From: an uncultured Solirubrobacterales bacterium
Lineage (GTDB): Bacteria > Actinomycetota > Thermoleophilia > Solirubrobacterales > Solirubrobacteraceae
DNA length: 40,000 nucleotides
Assembly: GCA_963787335.1 (NCBI GenBank)
Contig: CAWBCU010000029.1
Span: forward strand, 24,091 to 64,090
Reading direction: 5' to 3'
Shown: in pieces, positions 74 through 15,174 of the stretch
Numbering within the stretch: position 1 is the stretch's first letter
Layout of the letters: every line of letters starts with the position of its first letter
Notes under the pieces: model-generated
Told to the model about the DNA's origin: nothing
The model's database searches: none
What the model saw: the letters and a program-made list of their open reading frames with translations, nothing else
Position numbers and translations under genes: made by a program

Positions 74-1052
74 ATGCCGTACGAACCCGAGGCAGACACC
101 GTGCACGACGCGCAGGCGTACTGGCTGCGCGCGCCCGGGCGCGGTGAGATCCGGCCGGTGTCGCTGGCCGAGCCGGGCAGCGGCGATGTGGTGGTCCGCA
201 CGCTGCGCTCCGGCGTCAGCCGCGGCACCGAGACGCTGGTGTTCCGCGGTGGGTCGCCGCCGCGCGCGCCGTTCCAGGAAGGCGAGTTCCCGGGCCCGGT
301 CAAGTACGGCTACCTGAACGTCGGCGCGGTCGAGCAGGGGCCGCCGGAGCTGCGCGGGCGCACGGTCTTCTGCCTCTATCCGCACCAGACCGCGTACGTG
401 GTGCCGGCGAGCGCGGTGACCGTCGTGCCCGACGACGTGCCGCCCGCGCGGGCGGTGCTCGCCGGCACCGTCGAGACCGCCGTGAACGCGTTGTGGGACG
501 CGCCGCCGCTCGTCGGTGACCGCGTCGCCGTCGTGGGCGCCGGGATGGTCGGCTGCTGCGTCGCCCGCCTGCTCGCCCGCTTCCCGGCGGTGGAGGTCAC
601 GCTCGTCGACGTCGACCCGTCGCGCTCCGCAGTCGCGGCCGCGCTGGGCGCGCGGGTTCGCGCTGCCGGACGACGCCGCCGGCGGGTGCGACCTGGTCGT
701 GCACACGAGCGCGACGTCGGCCGGGCTCCAGCGCTCGCTCGAGCTGCTCGCGCCCGCGGGCACGGTGCTCGACCTCAGTTGGTACGGCGACGCCGAGGTG
801 CGGCTCTCGCTGGGCGGCGCGTTCCACTCGGGTCGCCTGCGGCTGCGCGCCAGCCAGGTCGGCACGGTGGCGCATGCGCGCCGCACGACGGCCGACCGCC
901 TGGCGCTCGCGCTCGACCTGCTGCGCGACCCCGCCTTCGACGTGCTCGTCACCGGCGAGTCGCGCTTCAGCGAGCTGCCCGGGGTCATGGCGCGCCTGGC
1001 CGATGGGAGCCTGCCGGCGCTCTGCCACACCATCACCTACGACGAGGTGTAG
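74..1052 (+). CDS. MDR-superfamily (zinc-type alcohol dehydrogenase-like) oxidoreductase; frame interrupted near 654-656
   Basis: The N-half is in the frame of ORF 74.. ([10 protein letters not shown]...[17 protein letters not shown], Rossmann GxGxxG). The C-half is in the frame of ORF 516..1052 (...[21 protein letters not shown]...CHTITYDEV*). Deleting one G of GGG at 654-656 joins them as ...AAALGARFALPDDA.... Span is 979 nt = 3n+1. No GHE zinc motif is visible (SGVSRGTE / YGYLNVG instead). Confidence 0.75.
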
Positions 1053-1055
1053 CCC

Positions 1056-1424
1056 GTGTTCAGCGTCACCGTCCGCGACCACATGATGATCGCCCACAGC
1101 CTGCGCGGCGAGGTGTTCGGGCCGGCGCAGCGCCTGCACGGCGCGACCTACGTCGTCGACGCGACCTTCCGCCGGGCGGAGCTCGACGCCGACGGGATCG
1201 TGATCGACATCGGCCTCGCGGCCGGGGCGCTGCGCGAGGTGCTGGCCGAGCTCGGCTACCGCAACCTCGACGAGGAGCTGGACTTCAACACCACGACCGA
1301 GGCGCTGGCCAAGCTCGTCGCGGACCGGCTCGCGGAGCGCGTGCAGGGGATGGGCCTCGAGGGAATAACCGTGACGCTGCGGGAGTCTCATGTGGCATGG
1401 GCCAGCTACGAGCGGCCGCTGTGA
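1056..1424 (+). CDS. 6-pyruvoyl-tetrahydropterin synthase/QueD (COG0720) homologue with degenerate active site
   Basis: 122-aa [41 protein letters not shown]... has the PTPS fold signature (AHxL ... LHG.xY.v). It contains no Cys and reads HGA instead of HGH. GTG start lies 3 nt after the upstream stop. Confidence 0.8.
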
Positions 1425-2509
1425 GGGAGGTCCACGTCATCGTCCCGGAGGGCGTCGACGACCCGGCCCGGCCGAGCGGCGGCAACACCTACGACCGCCG
1501 GCTCTGCCGCGGGCTCGCGGCGCTCGGCTGGACGGTCCACGAGCGCGCCGTGATCGGCGCGGCCGACCTCGCGCGCGTCGTCGAGCGGATCCCGGACGGC
1601 GCCGTGGTGTTGCTCGACGGCCTGATCGCCTCCCCCGCCCCCGAGGCGCTCGTGCCGCACGCCCGGCGGCTGCGGCAGGTCGTGCTCATGCACATGCCGC
1701 TCGGCGACCGGCGCGAGCGCGAGGTCGTCGCGGCGGCCGCCGCGGTCGTGACGACCAGCGCGTGGGCGCGGCGCCGGCTGATCGAGCTGCACGGGCTGCC
1801 GGCCGACCGCGTGCACGTGGCCGAGCCCGGCGTCGACGCGGCGGAGATCGCGCAGGGAACCGCAACCGGCGGCGCGCTGCTCTGCGTCGCGGCGGTGACG
1901 CGCGCCAAGGGCCACGACGTGCTGCTCGACGGGCTCGCGACCGTGGCGGACCTGTCGTGGCGCTGCGAATGCCTGGGCAGCCTCGACCGGCACGCGGCGT
2001 TCGCCGACCGTGTGCGGCGCCGCGCGCTGGCCGACGGGCTGCGCGACCGGGTGCACTTCGCCGGCCCGCGCACCGGCGCGGAGCTCGAGCGCGCGTACGC
2101 CGCCGCGGACCTGCTCGTGCTCGCCTCCCGCGGCGAGACCTACGGCATGGTCGTCACCGAGGCGCTGGCCCGCGGCGTGCCGGTGCTCGCCACGGACGTC
2201 GGCGGGATCAGCGAGGCGCTCGGGCACGCGGACAACGGAAGCCGGCCGGGACTGCTGGTCCCGCCCGACGACCCGCCGGCCCTCGGCGCCGCGCTGCGGG
2301 CCTGGCTCAGCGACGCCGAGCTGCGCGGGCGCCTGCGGCGGTCCGCGCGCGAGCGGCGCGCTGCGCTGCGCCCGTGGGCGGACACATCGTCCGACATCGC
2401 CCGCGTCCTCGCGGGAGCCGCGAGCGGCGCGGCGGAGGTCGAGCGTTCACGCTTGAGCGGCGCGGTGAGCGAGAGCGGCCTCGCGGTCAGCGCGGGAGCG
2501 GCGCGATGA
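1421..2509 (+). CDS. GT4/GT1-type glycosyltransferase
   Basis: [28 protein letters not shown]... with C-terminal [24 protein letters not shown] (the E-x7-E-type GT4 motif region). GTG 1421 overlaps the upstream TGA (GTGA). Confidence 0.8.
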
Positions 2510-3264
2510 GCGCGCCGGTCATCCGCGCCGGCCGCGAGTGGCTCGATCTGCGCGAGCCCGCCGACGCGGAGGCGCGCTCGGTCGAGCTTGCGGAGCGCCT
2601 CGCGCGCCACCTCCCCGCGGGCCCGCTCGTGATCCACGACCTCGGCGGCGGCCACGGCGCGATGGGGCGCTGGCTCGCGCCGCGGCTGCCCGGGCCGCAG
2701 CACTGGGTGGTGCACGACCGGGACGCGGAGCTGCTGAAGCTCAATGCGGCCGGCGTCGAGACGCGCCGCTCCGACATCACCCGCCTGGCGCCGGGCGAGC
2801 TCGACGGCGCGAGCGCCATCGTCGCCTCGGCGCTGCTGGACATGCTGACCGCGGACGAGCTCACCCGGATGCTCGGCGCGTGCGCCGGCCATCCGCTGCT
2901 GATCGCGATGACCGTGGCCGGACGCGTCGTCCTGAGCCCGGCGGATCCCCTGGACGAGCAGATCGTCGCCGTCTTCAACGACCACCAGCGCCGCGACGGC
3001 CGGCTCGGCCCGGACGCCGTCGACGCCGCGGTCGGGCAGCTGCGCGGCGAGGTGCTCGTCCGGCCGAGCCCCTGGCGGCTCGACGCGGCGACCCACGCCG
3101 GCCTGATGGCCGCGTGGCTCGGCGGGTGGGTCAAGGCCGCCTGCGAGCAGGAGCCCGGGCTGGCCGCCGAGGCCGGCCCCTACCGGGACCGTCGCCTGGC
3201 GCAGGCGGCCGCCGGCGAGCTGACCGTCACCGTCGACCACACCGACCTGCTGGTGCTGCCGTGA
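2506..3264 (+). CDS. SAM-dependent methyltransferase (class I-like)
   Basis: [18 protein letters not shown]...[17 protein letters not shown] (glycine-rich SAM loop), then ...VVHDRD. ATGA overlap with the glycosyltransferase stop. Confidence 0.65.
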
Positions 3265-4223
3265 CGGCCGCCGTCCACGAGGCCGCGACCGCCCATCGCC
3301 CGGGCGCGACGACCGCCGAGCAGCCGCGGGCGCACGCCACGACGATCAGCCGCCGCTCTGTTCGGCAGTGGGCGCGCCTCGCCGCCGCCGCGGGGACGCT
3401 CGCCGTCCTGGTCTGGAGCCTGGGCGCGAGCCCGTTCCTCGACGGCCTGCGCGCGGTCGACGGCGGGGCGCTGGCGGCCGCCTTCGGCCTCGGCGTGCTC
3501 ACGACCGCGTGCTGCGCCTGGCGCTGGCGGATCGTGGCGCGCGGGCTCGGCGTCGAGCTGCCGCTGGGCACCGCGGTGGCCGCGTACTACCGCTCGCTGT
3601 TCCTCAACGTCACGCTGCCGGGCGGCGTGCTGGGCGACATCCACCGCGGGATCAGCCACGGTGGGCTGCGCGCCGTGGCGTGGGAGCGCTCGGCCGGCCA
3701 GGTCGTGCAGGTCGTCCTCACCGTCGCCGTGCTCCTCGTCGTGCCGTCGCCGCTGCGGGCGGCCATGCCGATCGTCGCGCTCGCGCTCCTCGCCGCGGTC
3801 GCCGGCGTCGCGCTGGCCGCACACCTGCGGCCGGCGATCGGCCGGTCCCGCTGGGCGCGGCTGCGGCGCGGCGCGGCGCGCGATCTGCGCGACGGGCTGC
3901 TCGCCGCGCGGGCGTGGCCCGCCGTCGCGCTCGCGTCGGCGCTCGTCGTCGCCGGCCACGCGGTCACGTTCGTGATCGCCGCGCGGACCGCGGGGGCGAC
4001 CGCGTCGCCGTCCCATCTGCTGCCGCTGGCGCTGATCGTGCTGCTGGCCGGGGTGCTCCCCAACGTCGGCGGCTGGGGACCGCGCGAGGGCGTGACGGCG
4101 TGGGCGTTCGCCGCCGCCGGCCTGGGCGCGTCGCTCGGGGTCGCGACCGCGGTCGTCTACGGCGTGATGGTGCTCGCCGCCACGCTGCCGGGCGCCGCCG
4201 TCCTGCTGGTGCGCCGTGGCTGA
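3261..4223 (+). CDS. Multi-pass membrane protein, lysylphosphatidylglycerol-synthase-TM / flippase-like (UPF0104) family
   Basis: Highly hydrophobic 320-aa ORF with RWRIVARGLGVELPLGTAVAAYYRSLFLNVTLPGGVLGDIHRG, typical of this family. GTGA overlap at 3261-3264. Confidence 0.7.
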   Translation: MTAAVHEAATAHRPGATTAEQPRAHATTISRRSVRQWARLAAAAGTLAVLVWSLGASPFLDGLRAVDGGALAAAFGLGVLTTACCAWRWRIVARGLGVELPLGTAVAAYYRSLFLNVTLPGGVLGDIHRGISHGGLRAVAWERSAGQVVQVVLTVAVLLVVPSPLRAAMPIVALALLAAVAGVALAAHLRPAIGRSRWARLRRGAARDLRDGLLAARAWPAVALASALVVAGHAVTFVIAARTAGATASPSHLLPLALIVLLAGVLPNVGGWGPREGVTAWAFAAAGLGASLGVATAVVYGVMVLAATLPGAAVLLVRRG

Positions 4224-4905
4224 GCGCCCGTACACGATGCTCTCCTGCAGCGTGTCGCTCGACGGCTATCTGGGCGACCAGACGCCGCGCCTCGCGCTGT
4301 CCAACGAGGCCGACTTCGACCGCGTCGACGAGGTGCGCGCCTCCTGCGACGCGATCATGGTCGGCGCGGTCACCGTGCGCACCGACAACCCGCGGCTGCT
4401 CGTGCGCTCGCAGGCCCGCCGCGACGAGCGCACCGCCAACGGGCTCGCCGCGTCGCCGATGAAGATCACCGTCACGAACCGCGTCGACCTCGACGCGCGC
4501 TCGAACTTCTTCACCACCGGCGAGACGGAGAAGCTCGTCTACACCTCGAGCCCGCGCGTGGCCGACGCCCGCGCGCGCCTCGGGCCGGTGGCGACGATCG
4601 TGGACGGCGGCCGGCGCGTGCGCATGCGCGGGCTGAGCGAGGACCTCGCCGACCGCGGCGTCGAGCGGCTGATGGTCGAGGGCGGCGGGGTCGTGCACAC
4701 GCAGTTCCTGGCCGACGACCTCGTCGACGAGCTGCAGCTCGTCGTCGCGCCCTTCTTCGTCGGCGACTCGCGCGCCCCGCGCTTCGTGAGCGACGGGCAC
4801 TTCCCCTGGAACGCGGGGCGGCGCGCGAAGCTGGCCGAGACACGCCAGATCGGCGACGTGGTGCTGCTCCGCTACGCGCTCTCACCTCGATTCCGCGACG
4901 TATGA
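4216..4905 (+). CDS. RibD C-terminal domain (DHFR-fold) pyrimidine/pterin reductase family protein
   Basis: MAERPYTMLSCSVSLDGYLGD...DAIMVGAVTVRTDNPRLLVRS...RLMVEGGGVVHTQFLADDLVDELQLVVAPFFVG matches the RibD_C pattern. GTG start, 8-nt overlap with the upstream gene. Confidence 0.75.
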   Translation: MAERPYTMLSCSVSLDGYLGDQTPRLALSNEADFDRVDEVRASCDAIMVGAVTVRTDNPRLLVRSQARRDERTANGLAASPMKITVTNRVDLDARSNFFTTGETEKLVYTSSPRVADARARLGPVATIVDGGRRVRMRGLSEDLADRGVERLMVEGGGVVHTQFLADDLVDELQLVVAPFFVGDSRAPRFVSDGHFPWNAGRRAKLAETRQIGDVVLLRYALSPRFRDV

Positions 4906-7025
4906 GCGAGCGACGCTGGGGGCCGGCGTCGTGGGTGACGCTCGCCCGGGCCACGCTCGCCGCCGGCGTCGCCGCGCTCGCCATGGGCTCGTTCACGCGC
5001 GAGCCGCCGGTCGCGCTGCTCGTGACGCTCGCCGCCGTCGCGCTCGCGCTCGACGCGGCCGACGGATGGGTCGCGCGGCGCACCGGCACGGCGACGGCGC
5101 TGGGCGCGCGCTTCGACGGCGAGGTCGACGCGTTCCTGATCCTCGCGCTGAGCGTCTACGTCGCCCAGAGCGCCGGCGCGTGGGTGCTGGCGATCGGCGC
5201 GGCGCGCTACGTGTTCCTGGCCGGCGAGTGGCTGCTGCCGTGGATGCGCGCGCCGCTCCCGCGGCGGCGCTGGCGCCGGGTCGTCGCCGCGGCGCAGGGG
5301 ATCGTGCTGACGGTCGCGGCCGCCGGCGTCCTGCCGCACGCGCTCACGCAGGCCCTCCTGCTCGCCGCGCTGGTGGCGCTGAGCGCGTCGATGGGCGAGT
5401 GCACGTGGTGGCTGTGGCGCCGCCGGGAAGCCGCGCCGCCCCAACCCACCGCCCTCGCCGTGGCCCTCACCGTCCTCGCCCTGCTGCTCGTCTGGGCCGC
5501 GCTCGTCACCCCGAACCGGACGAGCGACCTCGACCTCGGCGCCTACGCCCGGCTCCCCCTCGAGCTGCTCATCGTGGTCGCGCTGGCCGTGCTGCTGCCC
5601 GCGACCCCGCGCCGCGTGCTGGCCGTCGTGGTGGGCGCGGTGCTGGGCGTGCTGGTGCTCGTGAAGGTCCTCGACATGGGGTTCTTCACCGCCTTCAACC
5701 GGCCCTTCGACCCGGTCTCCGACTCGAGCTACGCGGGCATCGGCATCGAGACCCTGCGCGACGCGATCGGCAGCTCGAGCGCAGACCTCGCCGTCGCGGT
5801 CGCGATCGTGCTGATCACCGCGCTGCTCGCCTTCCCGGTGCTCGCGCTGCTGCGCGTCACACGGGTCGCAGCCGGCCACCGCGGCTGGGCGCTGCGGGCG
5901 GCGGCGGTGCTGGGCGTCGCCTGGGTGGCGCTCCGGATCCTCGGCGCGCCGGTCGCCTCCTCGAGCGCGGCCGCCCTGGCCGTCGACCAGGTGCAGGCGG
6001 TGCGCACGGGCCTGGAGGATCGTGCGCGGCTCACGCGCCAGCTCGCCCACGACCGCTTCCGCACGACCCCGGGGGACCGGCTGCTGACCGGCCTCCGCGG
6101 CAAGGACGTGCTGCTCGTGTTCGTCGAGAGCTACGGGCGGGTCGCGGTCCAGGGCTCGTCGTTCGCGCCCCGCGTCGGCGCCGTGCTCGACCGGGGCACT
6201 GCCCAGCTGCAGGCCGCGGGCTTCTCCTCGCGCAGCGCCTTCCTCACCTCGCCGACCTTCGGCGGCCTCAGCTGGCTGGCGCACTCCACCCTGCAATCGG
6301 GGATCCGCGTCGACGGCCAGCGGCGCTACGACCAGCTCGTCCAGAACGACCGGCTCACGCTCACCCGGGCGTTCAAGCGCGCCGGGTGGCGGACGGTCGC
6401 CGACGTGCCGGCGAACCGCCGGGCGTGGCCGCAGGGGGCGAGCTTCTACGGCTACGACGCGATCTACGACCGCCGCAACCTCGGCTACCGCGGCCCGGGC
6501 TTCGGGCTGCCCCCGATGCCCGACCAGTTCGCGCTGCTCGCCCTGCAGCGCCTCGAGCTCGCCCAGCGCCGGCGACCGCCGCTGTTCGCCGAGGTCGACC
6601 TGATCTCGAGCCACGCGCCGTGGACCAAGATCCCCCGGCTGATCCCGTGGAACCAGGTCGGGGACGGCTCGATCTTCGACCGCATCCCCGCCGAGGAGTC
6701 CACGTTCGGTGACGCCGAGCGCACCCGCGCCGCCTACGGGCGCTCGATCGAGTACTCGCTGCGCACGCTCTTCTCCTTCGTGCGGCGCTACGGCGACGAG
6801 GACACGGTGCTCGTCGTCCTCGGCGACCACCAGCCCGCGACGCTCGTCAGCGGCGAGGGCGCCGGCCACGACGTGCCGATCTCGGTCATCGCCCACGACC
6901 CGAAGGTGATGCGCCGGATCGCCGGCTGGGGCTGGCAGGACGGGCTGCTGCCGAGCCCGCAGGCGCCGGTCTGGCCGATGGCCGCGTTCCGTGACCGCTT
7001 CCTCAGCGCGTTCAGCTCGCCATGA
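4902..7025 (+). CDS. Fusion protein: N-terminal CDP-alcohol phosphatidyltransferase, multi-TM linker, C-terminal alkaline-phosphatase-superfamily (sulfatase/LtaS-like) domain
   Basis: The complete D-x2-D-G-x2-A-R-x8-G-x3-D-x3-D motif is seen as DAADGWVARRTGTATALGARFDGEVD (about nt 5050-5130). Hydrophobic segments follow. The C-terminal part has VLLVFVESYGR...SPTFGGLSWLAHSTLQSG...VLVVLGDHQP, typical of sulfatase-like ectodomains. Single uninterrupted 707-aa frame; ATGA overlaps at both ends. Confidence 0.75.
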   Translation: MSERRWGPASWVTLARATLAAGVAALAMGSFTREPPVALLVTLAAVALALDAADGWVARRTGTATALGARFDGEVDAFLILALSVYVAQSAGAWVLAIGAARYVFLAGEWLLPWMRAPLPRRRWRRVVAAAQGIVLTVAAAGVLPHALTQALLLAALVALSASMGECTWWLWRRREAAPPQPTALAVALTVLALLLVWAALVTPNRTSDLDLGAYARLPLELLIVVALAVLLPATPRRVLAVVVGAVLGVLVLVKVLDMGFFTAFNRPFDPVSDSSYAGIGIETLRDAIGSSSADLAVAVAIVLITALLAFPVLALLRVTRVAAGHRGWALRAAAVLGVAWVALRILGAPVASSSAAALAVDQVQAVRTGLEDRARLTRQLAHDRFRTTPGDRLLTGLRGKDVLLVFVESYGRVAVQGSSFAPRVGAVLDRGTAQLQAAGFSSRSAFLTSPTFGGLSWLAHSTLQSGIRVDGQRRYDQLVQNDRLTLTRAFKRAGWRTVADVPANRRAWPQGASFYGYDAIYDRRNLGYRGPGFGLPPMPDQFALLALQRLELAQRRRPPLFAEVDLISSHAPWTKIPRLIPWNQVGDGSIFDRIPAEESTFGDAERTRAAYGRSIEYSLRTLFSFVRRYGDEDTVLVVLGDHQPATLVSGEGAGHDVPISVIAHDPKVMRRIAGWGWQDGLLPSPQAPVWPMAAFRDRFLSAFSSP

Positions 7026-7780
7026 GGCAGGACGGCCGCGCGCCCTTCGACCGGGCCCTGCGGCGCGCGCGGGTGGCGGCCTACGCCCCCGGCGAGTTCG
7101 TCGGGCAGGAGAGCTTCATGACCGCGGGCGAGATCCGGGCGCTGGCGGCGCAGGCCGGCGTCGGCCCCGGGGTCGCGGTGCTCGACCTCTGCTGCGGCGT
7201 CGCCGGGCCCGGGCGCCTGCTCACGCGCGAGCTCGGCTGCGACTACCTCGGCGTCGATGCCAGCGCGAGCGCCCTGGCCATCGCGCGCCAGGGGGAGGAG
7301 CGGTGCCGCTTCGCGCTCGCGCAGGTCCCGTCCCTGCCCGCCGGGTCCTTCGACGTCGTGCTGCTGCTCGAGGCGATGCTCGCCTTCGAGGACAAGGACG
7401 CGCTCGTGCGCGCGGTCGCCACGGCGCTCCGGCTCGGCGGGCGCTTCGCCTTCACGCTCGAGGAAGGGTCGCCGCTCACCAGACAAGAGCGGGCGGCGAT
7501 GCCCGACGCCGACACGGTCTGGCTCACCCCGCTCGCCGACCTCGCCGCGGCCCTGGAGCGCGCCGGGCTCGTCGTCACCAGGCAGGAGGACCACAGCGAC
7601 GCGCACCGCGCGACCGCGCAGGCGCTCACGGCCGCCTTCGCCGCAGACGCCCCGGCCATCGCCGCGCAGATCGGCCGCCGGGCACTGGACGAGCTGCTCG
7701 CCGCCCACCGGCTGTGGATCGAATGGCTCGACCGGGGGCGGGTGCGCAAGCTCGCGCTGGTGGCGGAGCACGCGGTCTAG
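7022..7780 (+). CDS. Class I SAM-dependent methyltransferase
   Basis: GVAVLDLCCGVAGPGRLL (motif I), YLGVDAS (motif II acidic loop) and FDVVLLLEAMLAF. ATGA overlap with the upstream gene. Confidence 0.75.
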   Translation: MRQDGRAPFDRALRRARVAAYAPGEFVGQESFMTAGEIRALAAQAGVGPGVAVLDLCCGVAGPGRLLTRELGCDYLGVDASASALAIARQGEERCRFALAQVPSLPAGSFDVVLLLEAMLAFEDKDALVRAVATALRLGGRFAFTLEEGSPLTRQERAAMPDADTVWLTPLADLAAALERAGLVVTRQEDHSDAHRATAQALTAAFAADAPAIAAQIGRRALDELLAAHRLWIEWLDRGRVRKLALVAEHAV

Positions 7781-7790: not shown

Positions 7791-8177
7791 ATGGCCTGGG
7801 TCCTCCGCTGCCTGCTGCTCGCGCTCGCGTGCGCGACCGCAGGCTTCATCCTCGTCGCGCTCGCGGGCGCGGCGGGCCTGCGGGTCGACGGCCAGGACCC
7901 GATCGAGCTCGGCGAGTACGTGTTCACGCTGATGCTGTCGGCGATCTGGGTGTGGCCGCTGTACATGCTCGCGCTCTTCGCGCTCGGCCGCCGCGGGCGC
8001 TTCCGGCTGTGGGCACTGGTTCTCTGCCCCTTCCTCGTGGCGGGCATGTCGATCGCGAACCTCGCGATCAACGTGCCCGAGGTGCAGGCCACCGACCTCG
8101 CCTGCGTGCTGTTCGCGCTCACCGTGCCGGCGCCGGGTCCCGCCCGCAGACAGGACCAGGTCCCGGCCGCAGGTTGA
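7791..8177 (+). CDS. Small hydrophobic membrane protein, unknown function
   Basis: Internal ATG of ORF 7257..8177. MAWVLRCLLLALACATAGFILVALAGAAG... followed by further hydrophobic stretches. I recognise no family. Confidence 0.45.
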   Translation: MAWVLRCLLLALACATAGFILVALAGAAGLRVDGQDPIELGEYVFTLMLSAIWVWPLYMLALFALGRRGRFRLWALVLCPFLVAGMSIANLAINVPEVQATDLACVLFALTVPAPGPARRQDQVPAAG

Positions 8178-8227
8178 GGCCCCGGCCTCTGGGAGGCCAC
8201 GCGCTCGCACGACAGCCTGTGCGATGA

Positions 8228-9478
8228 ATGCGCGACCAGCGAGGACAGACGTCGGCGGAGTACATGGGCGGGCTGCTGCTCGTGGCCGTGATCATCGGCG
8301 CGCTGGTGGCCAGCGGCATCGGCGGGAAGATCGCCGACCACGCCGCGCAGGCGATCTGCGCGATCGCCGGCGAGGGCTGCACCGCCACGGCGAGTGCGTC
8401 GACCACCGAGGAGGGGCTGCGCGACCGGCTGGCCGCGCTGACGCCGCTCGTCAACGGCTCGGGCGGCGCGATCTCGGCGCTTGCGGCGCAGGCCCAGGCC
8501 GCCATCGACCGCGGCGAGCTCGACGAGGCGCGCCGGCTGATCGAGCGGCTCGAGCTCCTCCGCGGGCTGATCGAGGCCGGCCCGCGCGGGGAGACCCTCG
8601 AGGGCCTCGTCGCGCCGACCGACGCGGAGTACGCGGACCTGGTGGCGCAGGGCACGATCCAGGCGGACGACGACGCCACCAACCGCCGCTACTTCCAGAT
8701 CGAGCCCGCGCCGGGCCAGGGCATCCTCGCCATCGACCTCTTCATCCCCGGCGACACCGCCGGCCCGCTCAAGGGCGACGGCCGCGACTTCGCCAACCCG
8801 CTGCGCGACCCGGACCTGGCCGAGGCCGACTCGCGCGTGATGGTGATCATCGATCGCGAGACCGGCCGCGGCGTGATCGTCCAGACCGAGAGCTGCACCG
8901 CGTCGATCGGCGGCCGCAACTTCTGCAACGAGGCGCGCCCGATCTCGCTCAACGGCGACCTCGGGCTGATCGAGAACGACACCGAGAACGACGCCACCGG
9001 CGAGGGCGTCAACCTCGACGTGACCAACAGCTACAACGTGCACGCGGACGGCGACGGCGTGCAGATCGACTACGAGTCGCGCAACAGCGTGTCGCCGTTC
9101 CCGGCCATCAGCGGCGACATCACCCTCCAGCCCGACGGCGACGGCGCGCTCTCGATCACCGAGGACGACCGCGACCAGTTCCCGGCCTATGCGACCTACC
9201 AGTACCGCCCGGGCGAGCCCGACCGCCGGATCGAGCACCGCGACGCGGGCAGCCCGATCCAGCTCATCACCCCGCCCGACCTCCCCGACCTGCCGAACCT
9301 CCCGGACCTGCCCGGGCCGCTGCCGGACCTCCCGAACCTCCCGAACCTCCCGCAGCTGCCGCACCCGCCCAACCCGCCGAACCTGCCCGACCTCCCGGAT
9401 CTGCCCGACCTCCCGGACCTGCCGGGCCGGCTGCCGGACCTCCCGAACCTGCCCAATCTGCCGGACCTGCCTGGATGA
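8228..9478 (+). CDS. Membrane-anchored/secreted protein with Flp/TadE-type pilin-like N-terminus, unknown globular domain and C-terminal [D/N]LP repeat tail
   Basis: MRDQRG-QTSA-EY-MGGLLLVAVIIGALV fits the Flp prepilin G/xxxxEY motif plus a hydrophobic helix. About 290 aa of unrecognised sequence follow. The last 66 aa are tripeptide repeats. Confidence 0.6.
   Translation: MRDQRGQTSAEYMGGLLLVAVIIGALVASGIGGKIADHAAQAICAIAGEGCTATASASTTEEGLRDRLAALTPLVNGSGGAISALAAQAQAAIDRGELDEARRLIERLELLRGLIEAGPRGETLEGLVAPTDAEYADLVAQGTIQADDDATNRRYFQIEPAPGQGILAIDLFIPGDTAGPLKGDGRDFANPLRDPDLAEADSRVMVIIDRETGRGVIVQTESCTASIGGRNFCNEARPISLNGDLGLIENDTENDATGEGVNLDVTNSYNVHADGDGVQIDYESRNSVSPFPAISGDITLQPDGDGALSITEDDRDQFPAYATYQYRPGEPDRRIEHRDAGSPIQLITPPDLPDLPNLPDLPGPLPDLPNLPNLPQLPHPPNPPNLPDLPDLPDLPDLPGRLPDLPNLPNLPDLPG
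9278..9475 (+). repeat. In-frame tandem 9-bp repeat (about 22 units) encoding (D/N/Q)LP tripeptides, with a higher-order duplicated block
   Basis: Units of gacctcccg / aacctgccg type translate to DLPDLPNLPDLPGPLPDLPNLPNLPQLPHPPNPPNLPDLPDLPDLPDLPGRLPDLPNLPNLPDLPG. The block DLPG(P/R)LPDLPNLPNLP occurs twice. Confidence 0.9.
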
Positions 9479-10176
9479 GGGGTATGAACAACACGATGCT
9501 CGCTCGAATCGCCACCGCCGCGGCGCTCGCGGCCGCCCTCGGCGGCTGCGGGGAGACCGACGAGCCGGCGCAGAAGCGCGAGGCCCCGCGCGCTCCGACC
9601 GTCACACCGGCCCCGGCCGCGGGCAGCTTCCCCGCGAAACCGCAGGTCATCGACAAGTTCGACGACGACGGGTCGGGCTGGCCCCGCGACGGCTACCGCG
9701 ACGGTGCCTTCGTGCTTCCCGCGAAGGGCTCCGCCGCGGTCCTCGCGCCCGAGCGGATCGAGCCGGCGACCCGCGGCACGCTGACCGAGGTCATCGCCGA
9801 GCCGGCCCGCGGCGGCGCGGCCGGGCTGCTGTGTCGCGCCTCGGCCGACGGTGGCACGGGCTACGCGCTGCTGCTCGACTCGAATTCGACCGTGCAGCTC
9901 CTGCGCCTCGAGGACGGCAAGGTCGGGGTGCTCAAGAAGCACAAGCTGACCCCCAACGAGCGCAGCGATCCCGGGAAGCCCTCGCTGCTGCGGCTCGGCT
10001 GCGGCACGGCCAAGCCCGGGCAGCCGGTGACGCTGATCTACGCGATCAACGCGACGCCGTTCGGATACGTGACCGACCGCGTGAGCCTCGATCCCGGCGC
10101 CCAGGCCCGCGTGGGGCTGCTGGCGCGCGACGGCACCGCCCGCTTCGACGACTTCGCGCTCTACCTGGCGGGCTGA
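9475..10176 (+). CDS. Lipoprotein (possible LamG/jelly-roll-like domain)
   Basis: MRGMNNTMLARIATAAALAAALGGC carries the lipobox L-G-G-C. ATG 9475 overlaps the upstream TGA (ATGA); an alternative ATG is at 9484. The C-terminus ...GTARFDDFALYLAG resembles concanavalin-like folds (weak). Confidence 0.65.
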   Translation: MRGMNNTMLARIATAAALAAALGGCGETDEPAQKREAPRAPTVTPAPAAGSFPAKPQVIDKFDDDGSGWPRDGYRDGAFVLPAKGSAAVLAPERIEPATRGTLTEVIAEPARGGAAGLLCRASADGGTGYALLLDSNSTVQLLRLEDGKVGVLKKHKLTPNERSDPGKPSLLRLGCGTAKPGQPVTLIYAINATPFGYVTDRVSLDPGAQARVGLLARDGTARFDDFALYLAG

Positions 10177-11075
10177 CTCAGAGCTCGAGCTCGAGCCCGT
10201 CGTAAGCCGACCTCGACGCCGGCCCGCAGCACCGCGTCGCGCTCGGGCGAGTCCTCGAGCAGGACCGGGTTCGTGTTGTTGATGTGGACGAGGATCACCC
10301 GCGGGCGCTCGAGCCCGGCGAAGACCTCCAGCGTCCCGTCCGGGCCGGAGAGCGGCACGTGGCCCATCTGCGCCGCGGTGCGGTCGGAGATGCCGAGCCG
10401 CGCCAGCTCGTCGTCGCGCCAGAACGTCCCGTCGACGAGCACGACGTCGCTCGCCGCGAGCCGGCCGAGCACGTCGTCGTCGAGGCGCGCGAGGCCGGGC
10501 ACGTAGGTCAGCACCCCGCCGGTCGAGCGATCGCGGAAGACGAGCCCGGTCGCCTCGACGTCGGCGCCGGTCCCTTCGAGGTAGCGCGGCGCGTCGCCGC
10601 CCGCCGCGAACGACTCGACCTCGAGCGAGGAGCCGTCGAGGCCGACCCCGTTCGCGGGCTCGAGCGTCCGCCACTCGACGCCGCTGTAGTCGCCGAGCAT
10701 CCGCAGCACGGGATAGCCGTCGGTCAGCGCCTGGCGGACCTGCTCGCTGCCGTACACCCGGATCGGCGTCGACGACTCGCGCAGCAGCAGGAGGCCGGCG
10801 GCGTGGTCGATCTCCGCGTCCGTCAACAGGACCGCGGCCACCGGCGCGGCGCGGACGTCGTTGACGCCCTCCGCGCCGAGCCCCTCGAGTTGCTCGCGCA
10901 GATCCGGCGAGGCGTTGGCGAGGAACCACGGGCCGTCCGCCCCGCGGATCGCGATCGACGACTGCGTCCGCGAGCGCGCGCCGTTGCCGCTGCGAGCGGC
11001 CTCGCAGGTCGGGCAGTGGCAGTTCCACTGCGGGAAGCCGCCGCCGGCGGCAGAGCCGAGAATTCGTGCGCGCAT
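10161..11075 (-). CDS. pqqB: PQQ biosynthesis protein B (metallo-beta-lactamase fold); the 3' end looks frameshifted, with the canonical end at 10178
   Basis: MRARILGSAAGGGFPQWNCHCPTCEAAR...ILVHINNTNPVLLEDSPERDAVLRAGVEV. After GVEV the as-given frame reads GLRRARARALSQPAR*. Skipping one C at 10207-10208 gives AYDGLELEL* (stop 10178-10180), the usual PqqB ending. SD GAAGGAAAC precedes ATG 11075. Confidence 0.9.
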   Translation of the reverse strand: MRARILGSAAGGGFPQWNCHCPTCEAARSGNGARSRTQSSIAIRGADGPWFLANASPDLREQLEGLGAEGVNDVRAAPVAAVLLTDAEIDHAAGLLLLRESSTPIRVYGSEQVRQALTDGYPVLRMLGDYSGVEWRTLEPANGVGLDGSSLEVESFAAGGDAPRYLEGTGADVEATGLVFRDRSTGGVLTYVPGLARLDDDVLGRLAASDVVLVDGTFWRDDELARLGISDRTAAQMGHVPLSGPDGTLEVFAGLERPRVILVHINNTNPVLLEDSPERDAVLRAGVEVGLRRARARALSQPAR

Positions 11076-11110
11076 GTTTCCTTCGGAGCGCGCGATGATA
11101 AAAGGAAGGG

Positions 11111-12628
11111 ATGCAGGTGGAGCTGACCGCAACGAAACCGGCCGAGGTGGAGGCCGACGTGCTTGCGATGGCCGCGGGCGGCCTGGGCGTGCGCAGGCTC
11201 GACGCGCTCTTCGAGGGGCGGCTGGTCCGCGCGGCGGCCAGCGCCGATCCGGTGGCGGTGGTGCCGGTCACGCGCGAGGTGCGTGCGCGCAGCATCGCGC
11301 TGGTCAAGCTCGACGCTGCCGAGCCCGCCGACCTGCAGCTCGCGGCGGCCCGGGCGGTGCGCGCGCACGTCGGCGGCGGGACGCTCGCGTGGGCGCTCGA
11401 CGACACGCTGCCGATCGCGATGCGCCTGCAGGTCCCGCCGATCGTCGAAGGCGCCGTCCTGGGCTCCTACGAGCCCGGCCGCTGGAAGAGCGGCGAGCCC
11501 AAGCCCGGGGTCGACCGCTTCGTCGTGTGCGGGGCGGACGAGGACGAGGAGCGGCTGCGCGACTCCGCGACGCACGCCGAGGTCACCGCGCGCTGGACGA
11601 ACGTCGCGCGCGAGCTCGTCGACGGGCCGCCCAACTTCGTCACCCCCACGAGCCTGGCCGAGCGCGCCGCCGCGCTTCCCGGCGTCAGCGTCGAGGTCAT
11701 CGATCCTGCCGCCGCCGGGCTGACGGCGCTGACCGCGGTGGGCGGGTCGAGCGCGCAGGCGCCGAAGCTCATCGTCCTGCGCAACGAGCCCGCCGGCGCG
11801 CCCGAGCGGCCGCTGCTGGCGCTCGTGGGCAAGGCCGTCACGTTCGACGCCGGCGGCTACTTCCTCAAGCCGCAGTCCGACATCGTGCGCCAGAAGGGCG
11901 ACATGGCCGCGGGGGCGGCGGTGCTCGCCGCGCTCGGCGCCATCGCCGAGCTGGAGCTGCCGGTCAATGTGATCGGCGTCATCCCCGCCTGCGAGAACAT
12001 GATCGGCCCCGACGCGATCCGCCCGTCCGACGTGATCCAGACGGCCTCCGGCCTGACCGTCGAGGTGACGAACCCCGACGCCGAGGGCCGGCTGATCCTC
12101 GCCGACGCGCTCTGGTTCGCGCGCCGCCAGGGCGCGACCCACCTGATCGACCTCGCAACGCTGACGGGCGCGATGCGGGCCGGGATGGGCGACCTCTACG
12201 GCGGCGTCTTCTCCAACGACAAGACCTGGCTCGACGCGGTCGTGGACGCCGGCAACGCGTCCGGCGATCTCGCCTGGCCGTGGCCGCTGCACCCGCGCTA
12301 CAAGCGTCTTCTGGAGTCGCGCGTCGCCGACCTGCGCAACACCTCGGGGCGGCCGTACGGCTATCCGATCACCGCCGCCAGCTTCCTGGAGCACTTCGCG
12401 GGCGACGGCCCGTGGGCGCACGTCGACATGCTCGGGCCGGCGCTGCTCGACGACGATCGCGGCGACGCGATCGGCGAGGGCGCGAGCGGCTACGGCGTGC
12501 GCATGCTCGTCGAGCTCAGCTCGCGCATGGCGGCCGCGCTGCGGCGCGGCGCGCAGGAGGCGGCGCAGCAGGCGGGCGCCCGGGCGATGCGGTCGTTCAG
12601 GCGCAAGCAGGAGGACGACGACGACTGA
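11111..12628 (+). CDS. pepA: M17 leucyl aminopeptidase
   Basis: 505-aa ORF with VGKAVTFDAGGYFLKP, DMAAGAAV and VEVTNPDAEGRLILADAL (the NTDAEGRL motif region). SD AAAGGAAGGG precedes the ATG. Confidence 0.9.
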   Translation: MQVELTATKPAEVEADVLAMAAGGLGVRRLDALFEGRLVRAAASADPVAVVPVTREVRARSIALVKLDAAEPADLQLAAARAVRAHVGGGTLAWALDDTLPIAMRLQVPPIVEGAVLGSYEPGRWKSGEPKPGVDRFVVCGADEDEERLRDSATHAEVTARWTNVARELVDGPPNFVTPTSLAERAAALPGVSVEVIDPAAAGLTALTAVGGSSAQAPKLIVLRNEPAGAPERPLLALVGKAVTFDAGGYFLKPQSDIVRQKGDMAAGAAVLAALGAIAELELPVNVIGVIPACENMIGPDAIRPSDVIQTASGLTVEVTNPDAEGRLILADALWFARRQGATHLIDLATLTGAMRAGMGDLYGGVFSNDKTWLDAVVDAGNASGDLAWPWPLHPRYKRLLESRVADLRNTSGRPYGYPITAASFLEHFAGDGPWAHVDMLGPALLDDDRGDAIGEGASGYGVRMLVELSSRMAAALRRGAQEAAQQAGARAMRSFRRKQEDDDD

Positions 12629-12676
12629 GCCGGCCCTCGACGCCGGGCTCCGATCACCGTAAACTCCGGTTTGCTG

Positions 12677-14071
12677 ATGAGTGAGGCTGGCAAGCGTCAT
12701 CGCCCCAATGACGCGGAGCGGTACCAGGCGGTGAGGGCGGCACGCGAACGCTTCCTCGCCGGCGATGACCGTGTGCGGGGGGTCCGGCCCGAGGTGGCGA
12801 CATCGTGGTACCGCTGCCGCGAGCAGTACCACGTCGACCCGCGGCTGGAGCGCGCGCCGCCCGCCCACGCCGAGCCGTCGGCCGAGCACACGCTCGAGCA
12901 GGCGGTCGTGTTCGCCCACCTCGGCGGCGCCGCGATGTCGATCGCGCCCGAGGTCGAGAGCCTCGGGGGCGTCGTCACGGTCACCGACGGCGCCGCCCAG
13001 ATCCTGAGCGTCCACGGCGACCCGAGCACGCTGCGTCGCGCGCGCGAGAGCAACATGGCGCCGTGGTCGTGCTGGTCGGAGTGGGCGACCGGGACGAACG
13101 GGATGGGCACCGCGCTGGAGGCTCCCGGACCGGTGCTGATCAGCGGGCCCGAGCACTGGTGCGAGGGCCTCGACGAGTGGGTCTGTGGCGGCGTGGCCGT
13201 CCGCGACCCGGTGACGGCCGACCCCCTCGCGGTCCTCGACGTCTCGACGTGGCGCCACAACCTGCCCGCGCAGGCAGCCGGCTGGCTGTCCAACGCGGTG
13301 AGCGGCGCGCGCGCGGTCCTGCGCCAGCGCGCCCGCGACAGCGGCGGCGAGCTGGCCACCGCGTTCGCCCAGGCGAGCGCGCGGTCCGGCCAGGCGCTCG
13401 CGGCGCTGGACGCGAGCGGCAAGGTCGTCATCGCCGACGAAGAGGCCAGCCTCCTGCTCGGCGTCCCCGCGCGCGTGCCGGCGCTCGACCCGACCGTGCG
13501 CTGGCGTCCGGCGCTCGACCTCGGGAGGCTGACCCGTCACGCGACCAAGCAGGCCCGTCTCGACCGCAACTGGGTGGGCTCGACGCAGATCGCGACCGGG
13601 CTGACCACGGAGCCCCTTCGGCTCACCCTGCGCCCGGTGTTCCTCGGCGACCAGCCGATCGGGGCGCTCGCCGTGTTCGGATCCGAGAGCGGGGACCCCG
13701 TCGAGAGCGACGCACCCGAGCGCGTGATGAGCCCGCCGTCCCGGATCGTGGGCGTCAGCGGCGAGCGCATGGTCCTGCTGCACCGGGAGGAGGTGCACTT
13801 CGCCGAGGCCGACGGCAGCGACGTCTGGCTCGACACCGACGAAGGTCGCCTGCAAGCCTCGGTCCATGGCATCGACAAGCTCGAGGACGAGCTGGCGGGC
13901 AGCGAGTTCGTGCGCGTCCACCGGCGCTTCCTCGTCAACCTGAACTGCGTCAGGGCGATCGACCGGGGGAAGCGCGGCGAGTTGATGCTGGTCATCGACA
14001 GCCCGGCGCGCGACGCCGTGCCCGTGTCCCGCCGCAACGTGCCCGCCGTCCGGCGCGCGCTCGGGATCTAG
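12677..14071 (+). CDS. Transcriptional regulator: AcoR-like N-terminal/GAF sensor region fused to a C-terminal LytTR DNA-binding domain
   Basis: N-terminus: RERFLAGDDRVRGVRPEVATSWYRCREQYHVDP (AcoR/GAF-type regulators). C-terminus: VLLHREEVHFAEADGSDVWLDTDEGRLQASVHGIDKLEDELAGSEFVRVHRRFLVNLNCVRAI, the LytTR pattern (i.yieA.g.y....t......r.sl..le..L....F.R.HRsfiVNl..v). First ATG at 12677; the ORF track opens at TTG 12671. Confidence 0.7.
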   Translation: MSEAGKRHRPNDAERYQAVRAARERFLAGDDRVRGVRPEVATSWYRCREQYHVDPRLERAPPAHAEPSAEHTLEQAVVFAHLGGAAMSIAPEVESLGGVVTVTDGAAQILSVHGDPSTLRRARESNMAPWSCWSEWATGTNGMGTALEAPGPVLISGPEHWCEGLDEWVCGGVAVRDPVTADPLAVLDVSTWRHNLPAQAAGWLSNAVSGARAVLRQRARDSGGELATAFAQASARSGQALAALDASGKVVIADEEASLLLGVPARVPALDPTVRWRPALDLGRLTRHATKQARLDRNWVGSTQIATGLTTEPLRLTLRPVFLGDQPIGALAVFGSESGDPVESDAPERVMSPPSRIVGVSGERMVLLHREEVHFAEADGSDVWLDTDEGRLQASVHGIDKLEDELAGSEFVRVHRRFLVNLNCVRAIDRGKRGELMLVIDSPARDAVPVSRRNVPAVRRALGI

Positions 14072-15174
14072 GCGCGCTCGGCGAGCGGCGCGCGCTTCAT
14101 CGTGCGATAGACGAACTCGTCGGTCTGCGCCTGCTCGCGGGCCGCGACGACCTTCTCGTGGTGCGGTGAGTAGCGGCACACGGGATCGGTGGCCGCGGCG
14201 TCGCCGGTGAGGCGGAGCGCCTGGCAGCGGCAGCCGCCCCAGTCCTCCTCCTGCCGGTCGAGCGGGCACGAGCGGCACGGCTCCGGCATCCAGTCCGTGC
14301 CGCGGAAGTGCGTGAACGCGTCCGACTCGTTCCAGATCCACCCGAGCGAGTGGTCCTTCACGTTGGGGAACTCGAGGCCGGGGATCGTCGCCGCGGCCTG
14401 GCACGGGAGCGCCTCGCCGTTGGGCGCGATCACCATCGTCGTCCGCCCCCAGCCGCCCATGCACGGCTTCGGCAGGTCCTCGTAGATGTCCGGCAGCACC
14501 CACAGGACGGTGATGCGCGGGCCGACGCGCTCGCGGAAGCGGCGCACCGCCTCCTCCCCGCGCTCGAGCTGCTCGCGCGTCGGGATCAGCGCCTGCTCGT
14601 TCACGACGGCCCAGCCGTAGTACTGGGTGTTCGCGAGCTCCAGCCGCTGCGCGCCGAGCTCCTCCGTGAGCGCGAGGATCTCCTCGATCCGGTCGAGGTT
14701 CTGGCGGTGCAGGACGCAGTTGACCGTGAGCGGGAAGCCGAGCTCGCGCGCCGCGCGGGCGGCCGCGATCTTCTTCTCGAACGAGCGGATGCCGCCGATG
14801 CGGTCGTTCTCCTCGGGGTCGGGGCTCTGGATCGAGACCTGGACGTGGTCCAGCCCGGCCTCCTTCAGCTCCGCGGCGCGCTCGGGCGTGAAGCGCGTGC
14901 CCGCGGTCACGAGCGTCGAGTACAGGCCGGCCGCGCGCCCGGCGGCCACGAGCTCGTCGAGGTCCTTGCGCAGCATCGGCTCGCCGCCGGTCAGCGCGAG
15001 CTGCAGGACGCCGAGCTGCCGCGCCTCGCCGAGGACGCGGGTCCAGTCCTCGGTTTCGAGCTGCGTGCGCCAGCGGGGGCCGCCGATGTCCACCGGGTTC
15101 GAGCAGTACGGGCAGTGCAGCGGGCACTGGTACGTGAGCTCCGCGACGAGCGTGTAGGGCTTAGGCGGCAGCAT
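14068..15174 (-). CDS. pqqE: PQQ biosynthesis radical-SAM/SPASM enzyme PqqE
   Basis: MLPPKPYTLVAELTYQCPLHCPYCSNP (CxxxCxxC) and a C-terminal Cys-rich SPASM region (CRSCPLDRQEEDWGGCRCQA). Intact 368-aa frame. Confidence 0.95.
   Translation of the reverse strand: MLPPKPYTLVAELTYQCPLHCPYCSNPVDIGGPRWRTQLETEDWTRVLGEARQLGVLQLALTGGEPMLRKDLDELVAAGRAAGLYSTLVTAGTRFTPERAAELKEAGLDHVQVSIQSPDPEENDRIGGIRSFEKKIAAARAARELGFPLTVNCVLHRQNLDRIEEILALTEELGAQRLELANTQYYGWAVVNEQALIPTREQLERGEEAVRRFRERVGPRITVLWVLPDIYEDLPKPCMGGWGRTTMVIAPNGEALPCQAAATIPGLEFPNVKDHSLGWIWNESDAFTHFRGTDWMPEPCRSCPLDRQEEDWGGCRCQALRLTGDAAATDPVCRYSPHHEKVVAAREQAQTDEFVYRTMKRAPLAERA

Follow-up and report, generated by a model that had tools for sequence, protein, structure and literature searches.

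The 40-kb window analysed here (40,000 nucleotides of contig CAWBCU010000029.1, from an uncultured Solirubrobacterales bacterium; unless a locus is named, positions are those of the window) begins with an operon, described in an earlier note on this DNA, of eight genes at positions 74 to 7780, one of which encodes a cysteine-free homologue of the PTPS enzymes. The operon is the form that a conserved actinobacterial cluster, the PTPS-IV cluster of the type represented by SCO6650 of Streptomyces coelicolor, takes in Solirubrobacterales. Since a scan of one genome per species uncovered relatives in at least 591 species genomes, it is not an isolated oddity of this genome, but rather a widespread orphan with potentially novel lipid chemistry. 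The model that in our opinion accounts best for the evidence, and to which we would grant somewhat less than an even chance, is that the cluster produces a GTP-derived phospholipid head group, which is flipped across the membrane and then transferred outside it. The cluster itself is not new, as both its neighbourhood of PTPS-IV, RibD_C and GTP cyclohydrolase II and its orphan status have already been published; what is new here is the extent of its conservation, the covariation of cyclohydrolase II with a putative deformylase, the LtaS/EptA-like ectodomain and a concrete, testable model.

Organization of the operon

Because the window contains about 75% G+C, raw lists of open reading frames (ORFs) were uninformative and coding frames were called from third-position GC (GC3 frame plot) instead, by which coding on the + strand extends unbroken over 74-7780. 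Of the eight ORFs described in the earlier note, seven were recovered exactly, the exception being gene 1, which is not an intact ORF as it stands, and the families proposed there for all eight genes held in a profile check (Pfam, plus orthologue matches for gene 4). The features are as follows.

74-1052, + strand: gene 1, MDR-fold (BchC-like / polyol-dehydrogenase-like) NAD(P)-dependent dehydrogenase, frameshifted (GC3, profile matches)
~646-656, + strand: extra single base breaking gene 1, within GGGCGCGCGGG (blastn, one gap against each of the eight closest loci)
1056-1424, + strand: gene 2, PTPS-IV (COG0720 subfamily), SCO6650 orthologue (Pfam PTPS, PDB 3D7J match)
1421-2509, + strand: gene 3, GT4 retaining glycosyltransferase (Pfam Glyco_trans_1_4 and Glycos_transf_1, E 5e-27)
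2506-3264, + strand: gene 4, class I S-adenosylmethionine (SAM)-dependent methyltransferase-like (Pfam, window copy weak, E 0.0036)
3261-4223, + strand: gene 5, polytopic protein of the LPG_synthase_TM family, the MprF flippase-domain family (Pfam PF03706, E 3e-21, whole protein)
4216-4905, + strand: gene 6, RibD_C-fold pyrimidine (ribosylamino to ribitylamino) reductase, archaeal/fungal type (Pfam RibD_C, E 1e-38)
4902-5450, + strand: gene 7, N-terminal module, CDP-alcohol phosphatidyltransferase (Pfam PF01066, E 1e-9)
5451-7025, + strand: gene 7, C-terminal module, about five transmembrane helices and an LtaS/EptA-like ectodomain of the alkaline-phosphatase superfamily (Pfam Sulfatase, LtaP profile match)
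7022-7780, + strand: gene 8, class I SAM methyltransferase, accessory (Pfam Methyltransf_25/11/23, E about 1e-10, best 8e-11)

The seven junctions, read from the sequence, agree with what had been described, five being 4-nt overlaps, one an 8-nt overlap and one a 3-nt gap, all on the + strand:

1050-1058: genes 1/2, TAG, 3-nt gap at 1053-1055, GTG
1421-1424: genes 2/3, GTGA overlap
2506-2509: genes 3/4, ATGA overlap
3261-3264: genes 4/5, GTGA overlap
4216-4223: genes 5/6, GTGGCTGA, 8-nt overlap
4902-4905: genes 6/7, ATGA overlap
7022-7025: genes 7/8, ATGA overlap

The operon and its surroundings yielded no riboswitch, tRNA or convincing terminator or promoter, and Rfam produced no match in the window or upstream of the cluster in seven related loci. 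A SAM-IV riboswitch (103 bits) does lie at 18680-18790 on the - strand of one Micromonospora locus (L017), about 4 kb beyond its copy of the cluster and with no evident connection to it.

Conservation of the cluster

The best 80 of the at least 591 genomes belong to Solirubrobacterales, other Thermoleophilia, Micromonospora, Actinomadura, Streptomyces, Cellulomonas, Aeromicrobium, Nocardiaceae and Pseudonocardiaceae; the closest among the matches listed are Solirubrobacteraceae genomes, in keeping with the composition of the window. Conservation was counted by tblastn with the window proteins in the 52 loci with complete 10-kb flanks (de novo ORF clustering over 83 loci was discarded because of spurious high-GC ORFs):

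gene 1 (MDR-like dehydrogenase): 52/52 loci
gene 3 (GT4): 51/52 loci
gene 4 (methyltransferase): 46/52 loci
gene 5 (LPG_synthase_TM): 50/52 loci
a RibD_C protein: 47/52 loci
CDP-alcohol transferase: 47/52 loci
LtaS-like part: 41/52 loci
gene 8: 26/52 loci
three ORFs after gene 8 (7791-10176): 0/52 loci

The families travel together across several actinobacterial orders, which refutes the possibility that their co-occurrence is not conserved. Moreover, the order dehydrogenase-PTPS-GT4-methyltransferase-flippase-reductase is preserved across lineages, with a homologue of gene 1 directly upstream of PTPS-IV in every full locus. The unit of eight genes proposed earlier stands as a conserved core of seven families (MDR-like dehydrogenase, PTPS-IV, GT4, methyltransferase, LPG_synthase_TM, RibD_C and CDP-alcohol phosphatidyltransferase), to which gene 8, present near the cluster in half of the loci and mostly in Solirubrobacterales-like genomes, is an accessory.

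The CDP-alcohol transferase and LtaS-like genes behave differently, in that they shift position and strand between lineages and yet remain within 10 kb. In Solirubrobacterales-like genomes the two genes are fused and lie downstream, and in Micromonospora they lie upstream in divergent orientation and are mostly unfused. Within Micromonospora the two are mostly adjacent separate genes and fused in some genomes (808-814 aa; P0261 and P0315 versus L017:6147-8926), and from this varied state it follows that the fusion either arose more than once or was split repeatedly. Linkage that survives both rearrangement and fusion is good evidence of shared function, with the reservation that it was observed among the 80 loci nearest to the query.

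Compared with the window, the S. coelicolor SCO6650 cluster has a PTPS-IV protein that is 73% identical to gene 2 and carries the same FGPAQ and HGA motifs. In two Streptomyces loci (L054 and L035) the genes run, as in the window, in the order dehydrogenase-PTPS-GT4-methyltransferase-LPG_synthase_TM, and a CDP-alcohol transferase lies upstream. Loci of the Streptomyces type differ in having a cyclohydrolase II that lacks a particular Tyr (see below), a creatininase-fold gene and a more distant RibD_C protein (29% identity), and in having neither an LtaS-like gene nor gene 8 within 10 kb; conversely, the window cluster has no cyclohydrolase, and its CDP-alcohol transferase is fused to the LtaS-like protein. 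SCO6655 is the GTP cyclohydrolase II paralogue neighbouring SCO6650.

Gene 2 belongs to PTPS-IV and has lost the canonical catalytic residues

Gene 2 matches Pfam PTPS (PF01242; E 3.6e-24) over residues 4-120 of its 122, and PDB entry 3D7J ("uncharacterized protein SCO6650", S. coelicolor) with E 9e-49 and 73% identity. The SCO6650 crystal structure reportedly dates from 2008, and Spoonamore and Bandarian are said to have found, also in 2008, that the protein has neither zinc nor PTPS activity. As claimed earlier, the window protein is free of cysteine and reads RLHGAT, and the likeness to SCO6650-type PTPS-IV, also pointed out then, is borne out by the identity to 3D7J together with the presence of the FGPAQ signature. 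Aligned with solved PTPS enzymes, it has Ala in place of the Cys, HGA in place of HGH and Gly-Tyr in place of Asp-His (its GYRNLD falling opposite DHRNLD or DHKNLD), such that one zinc-binding His, the third, is lost. Seven aligned PTPS-IV members, SCO6650 among them, all keep FGPAQ, the first His and the C-terminal Glu. The alignment thus confirms the earlier proposal that the canonical PTPS residues are not all retained. Canonical COG0720 proteins (PTPS-II, QueD/PTPS-I and PTPS-III) belong to the same T-fold family, PF01242, and gene 2 still has their first His and C-terminal Glu, but their CxxxxxHGH, CxxxHGH and ExxHGH motifs are missing from it.

PTPS-IV was named as a family by 2017 at the latest, with FGPAQ as its signature in place of the Cys-containing motif, and its neighbourhoods are described as containing RibD_C and GTP cyclohydrolase II (PF00925) (PMC5445326). 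In the window, RibD_C is indeed inside the operon, and no PF00925 gene occurs in the 40 kb; such a gene is present in 29 of the 52 related loci. The PTPS protein of the window has a 100%-identical database entry; its neighbourhood context was supplied by a relative with 89% identity and by the genome scan.

The reductase and GTP cyclohydrolase II point to a GTP-derived precursor

The best NCBIfam model for gene 6 is TIGR01508, the archaeal 2,5-diamino-6-ribosylamino-pyrimidinone 5'-phosphate reductase, which it matches with 139.9 bits, under the cut-off of 186.45. Its best PDB matches (5XUX, 6P8C and 2AZN) are likewise archaeal and yeast reductases of the 2,5-diamino compound. These nearest archaeal and fungal reductases act ahead of deamination, and the cluster contains no deaminase. 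In the 29 of 52 loci mentioned above, a GTP cyclohydrolase II adjoins RibD_C; with the RibA subfamily model it reaches 257 bits, which exceeds the cut-off. As no PF00925 cyclohydrolase is found anywhere in the 40-kb window, the organism would presumably draw on its housekeeping enzyme.

At the position equivalent to Tyr105 of Escherichia coli RibA, the 33 cluster cyclohydrolases whose loci have no creatininase-fold gene all carry Tyr, and the four whose loci do have one all carry His or Leu. The creatininase-fold gene (PF02633) occurs in five loci, from Streptomyces, Actinomadura and one Actinomycetales genome (L054, L035, L027, L012 and L019), for instance on the - strand of L054 at 14233-14961, and in both Streptomyces loci it stands beside the more distant RibD_C gene. 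The mycofactocin MftE model fits it better (145 bits) than does that of ArfB (35 bits), the cut-off being reached in neither case. The archaeal deformylase ArfB is a creatininase-fold enzyme, and SCO6655, according to Spoonamore and Bandarian, reportedly lacks the Tyr and stops at the formylaminopyrimidine. Loss of Tyr105 together with gain of the creatininase-fold gene fits a formylaminopyrimidine-forming variant paired with a deformylase and, provided that these statements about SCO6655 and ArfB hold, this covariation is what one would expect if the pathway needs a deformylated diaminopyrimidine.

The cyclohydrolase/creatininase covariation, the type of reductase and the missing deaminase together point to a GTP-derived 2,5-diamino-6-ribitylamino-pyrimidinone phosphate as the entry compound; given the cyclohydrolase II beside RibD_C in many loci, the precursor is probably the GTP-derived diaminoribosylaminopyrimidine phosphate. 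Likewise, the cyclohydrolase II in other versions of the cluster points to a start from the ribosylaminopyrimidine rather than from neopterin triphosphate. This arrangement resembles the early archaeal/fungal steps of riboflavin and F420 synthesis (ArfA, ArfB and ArfC/Rib7), in that gene 6 is nearest to the archaeal and yeast reductases and related loci add cyclohydrolase II, as well as a hydrolase of the ArfB superfamily where the Tyr105 equivalent is lost. It differs from them in that the scores stay under the equivalog cut-offs and the genes are embedded among glycosyl-, methyl- and phosphatidyltransferases. Nor is it a riboflavin operon, for Pfam detects no deaminase, lumazine synthase, riboflavin synthase or DHBP synthase family in it.

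Genes 5 and 7 encode a flippase-like protein and a fused phosphatidyltransferase with an LtaS-like ectodomain

Gene 5 contains several hydrophobic segments and covers the whole LPG_synthase_TM model, which corresponds to the flippase part of MprF; unlike MprF, its 320-aa product is the membrane domain alone and has no C-terminal aminoacyl-phosphatidylglycerol synthase domain.

The N-terminal ~180 residues of gene 7 contain the full CDP-alcohol phosphatidyltransferase motif, D51xxD54G55xxA58R59x8G68x3D72x3D76, which is invariant or nearly so in 25 homologues. About five hydrophobic segments follow at residues 184-349, ahead of the ectodomain, as in LtaS. The ectodomain (residues 385-707) matches Pfam Sulfatase with E 2e-6 and 27.5 bits against a cut-off of 25. 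A search of the PDB with the single sequence found no match, and a profile of 16 ectodomain orthologues from several orders found one, Listeria LtaP (4UOP; E 2e-5). E409, T452, H571 and D642-H643 are invariant in these orthologues. ESxG, SPTFGG (containing Thr452) and SSHxPW align with the matching LtaP motifs and GDHQP (containing D642-H643) lies beyond the printed LtaP alignment, so that the role of D642-H643 as metal ligands is our assignment by motif. In further support, Foldseek with an AlphaFold2 model of residues 184-707 (mean predicted confidence, pLDDT, 64) placed LtaP, EptC, MCR-1, PbgA and LtaS at the top, ahead of true sulfatases, and each of these top matches is a membrane-anchored enzyme or protein concerned with the head groups of phospholipids; LtaP, EptC, MCR-1 and LtaS all remove a phospho-head group from a phospholipid.

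Hence, while the earlier observation that a phosphatase-superfamily ectodomain is fused to a CDP-alcohol transferase was accurate, the generic phosphatase/sulfatase label is not retained in view of the LtaP profile match and the Foldseek ranking. Judged from conserved sequence motifs and the predicted fold, the domain appears best described as an LtaS/EptA-type phospho-head-group transferase with conserved nucleophile and metal ligands. The closest known parallels are the Firmicutes route from phosphatidylglycerol to lipoteichoic acid (PgsA, LtaS/LtaP), EptA/MCR-1 and GacH, with which the ectodomain shares the Glu, Thr, His and Asp-His set, a CDP-alcohol transferase here adjoining or being fused to a protein in which an alkaline-phosphatase-superfamily ectodomain follows five transmembrane helices. 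The likeness to LtaP is marginal, however (seen by profile only), and the predicted donor lipid would carry a specialised head group rather than glycerol phosphate or ethanolamine phosphate. Actinobacteria have been reported to be without clear LtaS orthologues (PMC3196553).

The dehydrogenase, glycosyltransferase and methyltransferases

The range of gene 1 spans 979 nt, which is not a multiple of three. Its coding signal follows the frame of position 74 until about 650 and thereafter the frame of the stop at 1052 (GC3), and all eight of the closest homologous loci are one base shorter within GGGCGCGCGGGTTCGC at ~646-656 (blastn). Gene 1 is therefore frameshifted in this sequence, by either an assembly error or a real lesion. 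The PQQ dehydrogenase gene at 16159-18007 is likewise split over two frames, and for this reason we consider an assembly indel more likely than a true pseudogene.

With the frame repaired, the gene 1 protein matches ADH_zinc_N with E 1e-5 (Pfam) and the BchC model TIGR01202 with E 6e-13 (NCBIfam); these and its other best models, polyol or threonine dehydrogenases, are all under their cut-offs. A profile of its orthologues matches MDR dehydrogenases in the PDB, with SGVSRGTE opposite the GiCGSD zinc site. Both zinc motifs are replaced, GxCGxD by SGVSRGTE and, in agreement with the earlier description of an MDR dehydrogenase without GHE, GHE by YGYLNVG; the catalytic Cys is lost and the Rossmann motif VGAGMVG is retained.

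The best PDB matches of gene 3 are MshA (3C4Q/3C48), sucrose-phosphate synthase, BshA and PimA. MshA and PimA use inositol phosphate or phosphatidylinositol, and the actinobacterial operon for phosphatidylinositol and phosphatidylinositol mannosides (PIM; PgsA1, an acyltransferase and PimA) likewise combines a CDP-alcohol transferase with a GT4 enzyme. The present cluster differs from it in having neither inositol-phosphate synthase nor PIM acyltransferase and in that the remaining genes are without PIM counterparts; moreover, the GT4 likeness resides mostly in the nucleotide-sugar half of gene 3. As for gene 4, 15 of 16 orthologues match Methyltransf_25 (best E 2e-8) and their DLGxGxG motif is invariant.

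A model for the pathway and its alternatives

How could these enzymes work together? The families, catalytic motifs, co-location and link to GTP cyclohydrolase II can be read directly from the data, and to these our model adds an order of steps, substrates, a lipid linkage and a final acceptor. GTP cyclohydrolase II, which many genomes encode within the cluster, would open GTP to 2,5-diamino-6-ribosylamino-4(3H)-pyrimidinone 5'-phosphate, and gene 6 would reduce its ribosyl to a ribityl chain. The always-adjacent genes 1 and 2 could then convert this polyol-pyrimidine, by oxidation and by rearrangement or cyclisation, to a compound of the pterin or pyrimidine type; one speculative option is that a ribityl hydroxyl is oxidised, after which the ring closes to a dihydropterin. 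Methylation by genes 4 and 8 and glycosylation by gene 3 would follow. The CDP-alcohol module of gene 7 would subsequently join the head group through a phosphodiester to diacylglycerol, donated by CDP-diacylglycerol, and gene 5 would move the resulting lipid, as an MprF-type flippase does, to the outer leaflet. There, the LtaS-like ectodomain of gene 7 would remove diacylglycerol and pass the phospho-head group on to an envelope acceptor. If so, the cluster would make an undescribed class of membrane lipids, with a glycosylated and methylated GTP-derived ribitylaminopyrimidine or pterin head group on diacylglycerol and, in many Actinomycetota, LtaS-like transfer to the envelope; in this fully specified form we regard the proposal as rather doubtful. 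The interpretation offered in the earlier note, a reduced, methylated and glycosylated small head group coupled to a lipid carrier and exposed outside the membrane, is plausible, being reasonable, in part corroborated and compatible with all of our findings.

Several observations weigh against the lipid model. The 80 loci examined are those closest to the query and thus not a random sample of the at least 591 genomes with a relative. The CDP-alcohol transferase was not found in 5 of the 52 loci, and the loci from Streptomyces, Actinomadura, Nocardiaceae and Pseudonocardiaceae have no LtaS-like gene within 10 kb, so external transfer is no universal step. Several of the assignments score below threshold, and gene 6, being under the TIGR01508 cut-off and matching Rv2671 with E 4e-13, could instead be a DHFR-like pterin reductase. 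With 25 close homologues as input, AlphaFold gave no usable model of full-length gene 7 (pLDDT 44), and the ectodomain model, obtained after Micromonospora sequences had been added, has TM-scores of 0.3-0.4 besides its pLDDT of 64 and serves as support only. PTPS-IV is said to act in archaeal F420 synthesis, on the basis of unpublished work (PMC5041015), which the lipid model leaves unexplained. No metabolite or lipid is tied to the cluster in searchable papers. Finally, should the frameshift in gene 1 be real, the pathway may be inactive in this genome.

Two rival explanations are live. The soluble enzymes might make a free glycosylated and methylated molecule of the pterin or pyrimidine type, a cofactor, pigment or signal comparable to the cyanobacterial pteridine glycosides, with the membrane proteins serving for export only or being unrelated. 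That the GT4, methyltransferase, RibD_C, PTPS-IV and dehydrogenase proteins are all cytoplasmic small-molecule enzyme types speaks for it, as do the small-molecule glycosyltransferases MshA and BshA among the closest solved relatives of gene 3 and the Streptomyces-type loci without an LtaS-like gene. We nevertheless consider a free product unlikely: the CDP-alcohol transferase has an intact motif and, despite rearrangements and fusions, remains with the cluster in 47 of 52 loci, LPG_synthase_TM belongs to the syntenic core in 50 of 52, and neither family is a known small-molecule exporter. Alternatively, two separate modules could simply lie side by side, one an archaeal-style branch for riboflavin or F420 precursors (cyclohydrolase, deformylase, reductase and PTPS-IV) and the other a membrane module for a glycolipid or a teichoic-acid-like product (GT4, CDP-alcohol transferase, flippase and LtaS-like protein). 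The set of cyclohydrolase, creatininase-fold and RibD_C proteins does mirror the archaeal ArfA/ArfB/ArfC steps, the PgsA-like, GT4 and LtaS-like proteins do resemble the machinery for lipoteichoic acid or PIM, and the F420 role stated for archaeal PTPS-IV (PMC5041015) could be accommodated. However, the two supposed sets of genes are intermingled (dehydrogenase-PTPS-GT4-methyltransferase-flippase-(cyclohydrolase)-reductase) in an order kept across orders, with start/stop overlaps in the window, and no deaminase, lumazine synthase, FbiC or CofD-type gene is found in the cluster, which makes this arrangement improbable.

That the cluster of this genome is a decaying pseudogene cluster with a broken first gene is quite improbable as well. 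One extra base in gene 1 with respect to all eight closest homologues would agree with decay, but the other genes are intact, with a strong GC3 coding signal and conserved catalytic motifs, and the second frameshift, in the unrelated PQQ dehydrogenase, suggests assembly indels. The remaining explanation assigns the cluster to the biosynthesis of the cofactors tetrahydromethanopterin (H4MPT) and methanofuran. It draws on the Fae, Mch, MtdB-like, Fhc-like, MfnB and pterin-binding DHPS-like genes at 18.7-36.9 kb of the window, and on methanopterin itself being a reduced, methylated and glycosylated pterin with a phosphodiester. Against it, the two sets of genes are kept apart in the window by non-conserved genes and an opposite-strand operon for pyrroloquinoline quinone (PQQ), and the cluster is common in Micromonospora, Streptomyces and Actinomadura, none of which is known to use H4MPT. 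Given also that not one of 83 related loci, the two closest relatives included, has a PQQ or H4MPT-pathway gene within 10 kb, a link to either pathway is nearly excluded, and we deem this explanation highly improbable.

Other genes in the window

Three + strand ORFs (7791-10176) start 11 nt after gene 8:

7791-8177, + strand: small three-helix membrane protein
8228-9478, + strand: 416-aa protein with an N-terminal membrane helix and C-terminal PDLPNL-type hexapeptide repeats
9496-10176, + strand: lipoprotein with a LAAALGGC lipobox

None of them has a Pfam family or occurs near the cluster in the 52 other loci, and we left them out of the cluster because they are never conserved with it. They are followed at 10164-16132 by PQQ biosynthesis genes on the - strand, which two + strand genes interrupt, and by further PQQ-associated genes:

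10164-11075, - strand: pqqB
11111-12628, + strand: M17 aminopeptidase, interrupting the PQQ genes
12731-14071, + strand: LytTR-domain regulator, interrupting the PQQ genes
14071-15174, - strand: pqqE
~15164-15337, - strand: pqqD
15425-16132, - strand: pqqC
16159-18007, - strand: PQQ-dependent alcohol/methanol dehydrogenase, split into two overlapping ORFs in different frames
18042-18461: MSMEG_3727-type PQQ-associated protein

The N-terminal part of the split dehydrogenase (17111-18007) covers profile positions 1-232 and the C-terminal part (16159-17250) begins at profile position 235, hence a second frameshift in the window, which suggests assembly indel errors.

A complete one-carbon (C1) module linked to H4MPT and methanofuran occupies 18749-36867. 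Besides CitG-like, DUF447, ATP-grasp and pterin-binding DUF6513 genes, it contains:

22058-23635: GHMP-kinase/MfnB fusion
24319-25269: Mch
25269-29776: Fhc/Fwd-like subunits
31846-32340: Fae
34922-35788: MtdB-like gene

An H4MPT-type C1 pathway in a Solirubrobacterales-like actinobacterium may merit separate study.

Significance

PTPS-IV has a structure and a family name, and yet we found no published function for it. Likewise, the literature searched, which did not extend to key subscription papers, contains neither a paper that assigns a product to the actinobacterial cluster nor a functional study of it, in line with the earlier remark that no product had been assigned. The cluster occurs, however, in at least 591 species of Actinomycetota, including culturable and genetically tractable Streptomyces and Micromonospora. 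The present analysis ties its T-fold protein and riboflavin-type reductase to GTP cyclohydrolase II on the one hand, and to a phosphatidyltransferase, an MprF-type flippase and an LtaS-like ectodomain on the other.

Should the lipid model fail, the cluster would probably still encode an unknown GTP-derived metabolite. If it is true, it would reveal new head-group chemistry for bacterial membranes and place LtaS-like enzymes in a phylum reported to be without clear LtaS orthologues (PMC3196553). An undescribed lipid class of this kind would represent a pterin- or pyrimidine-bearing counterpart of lipoteichoic acid or of lipid A decoration, and would provide the first function for PTPS-IV.

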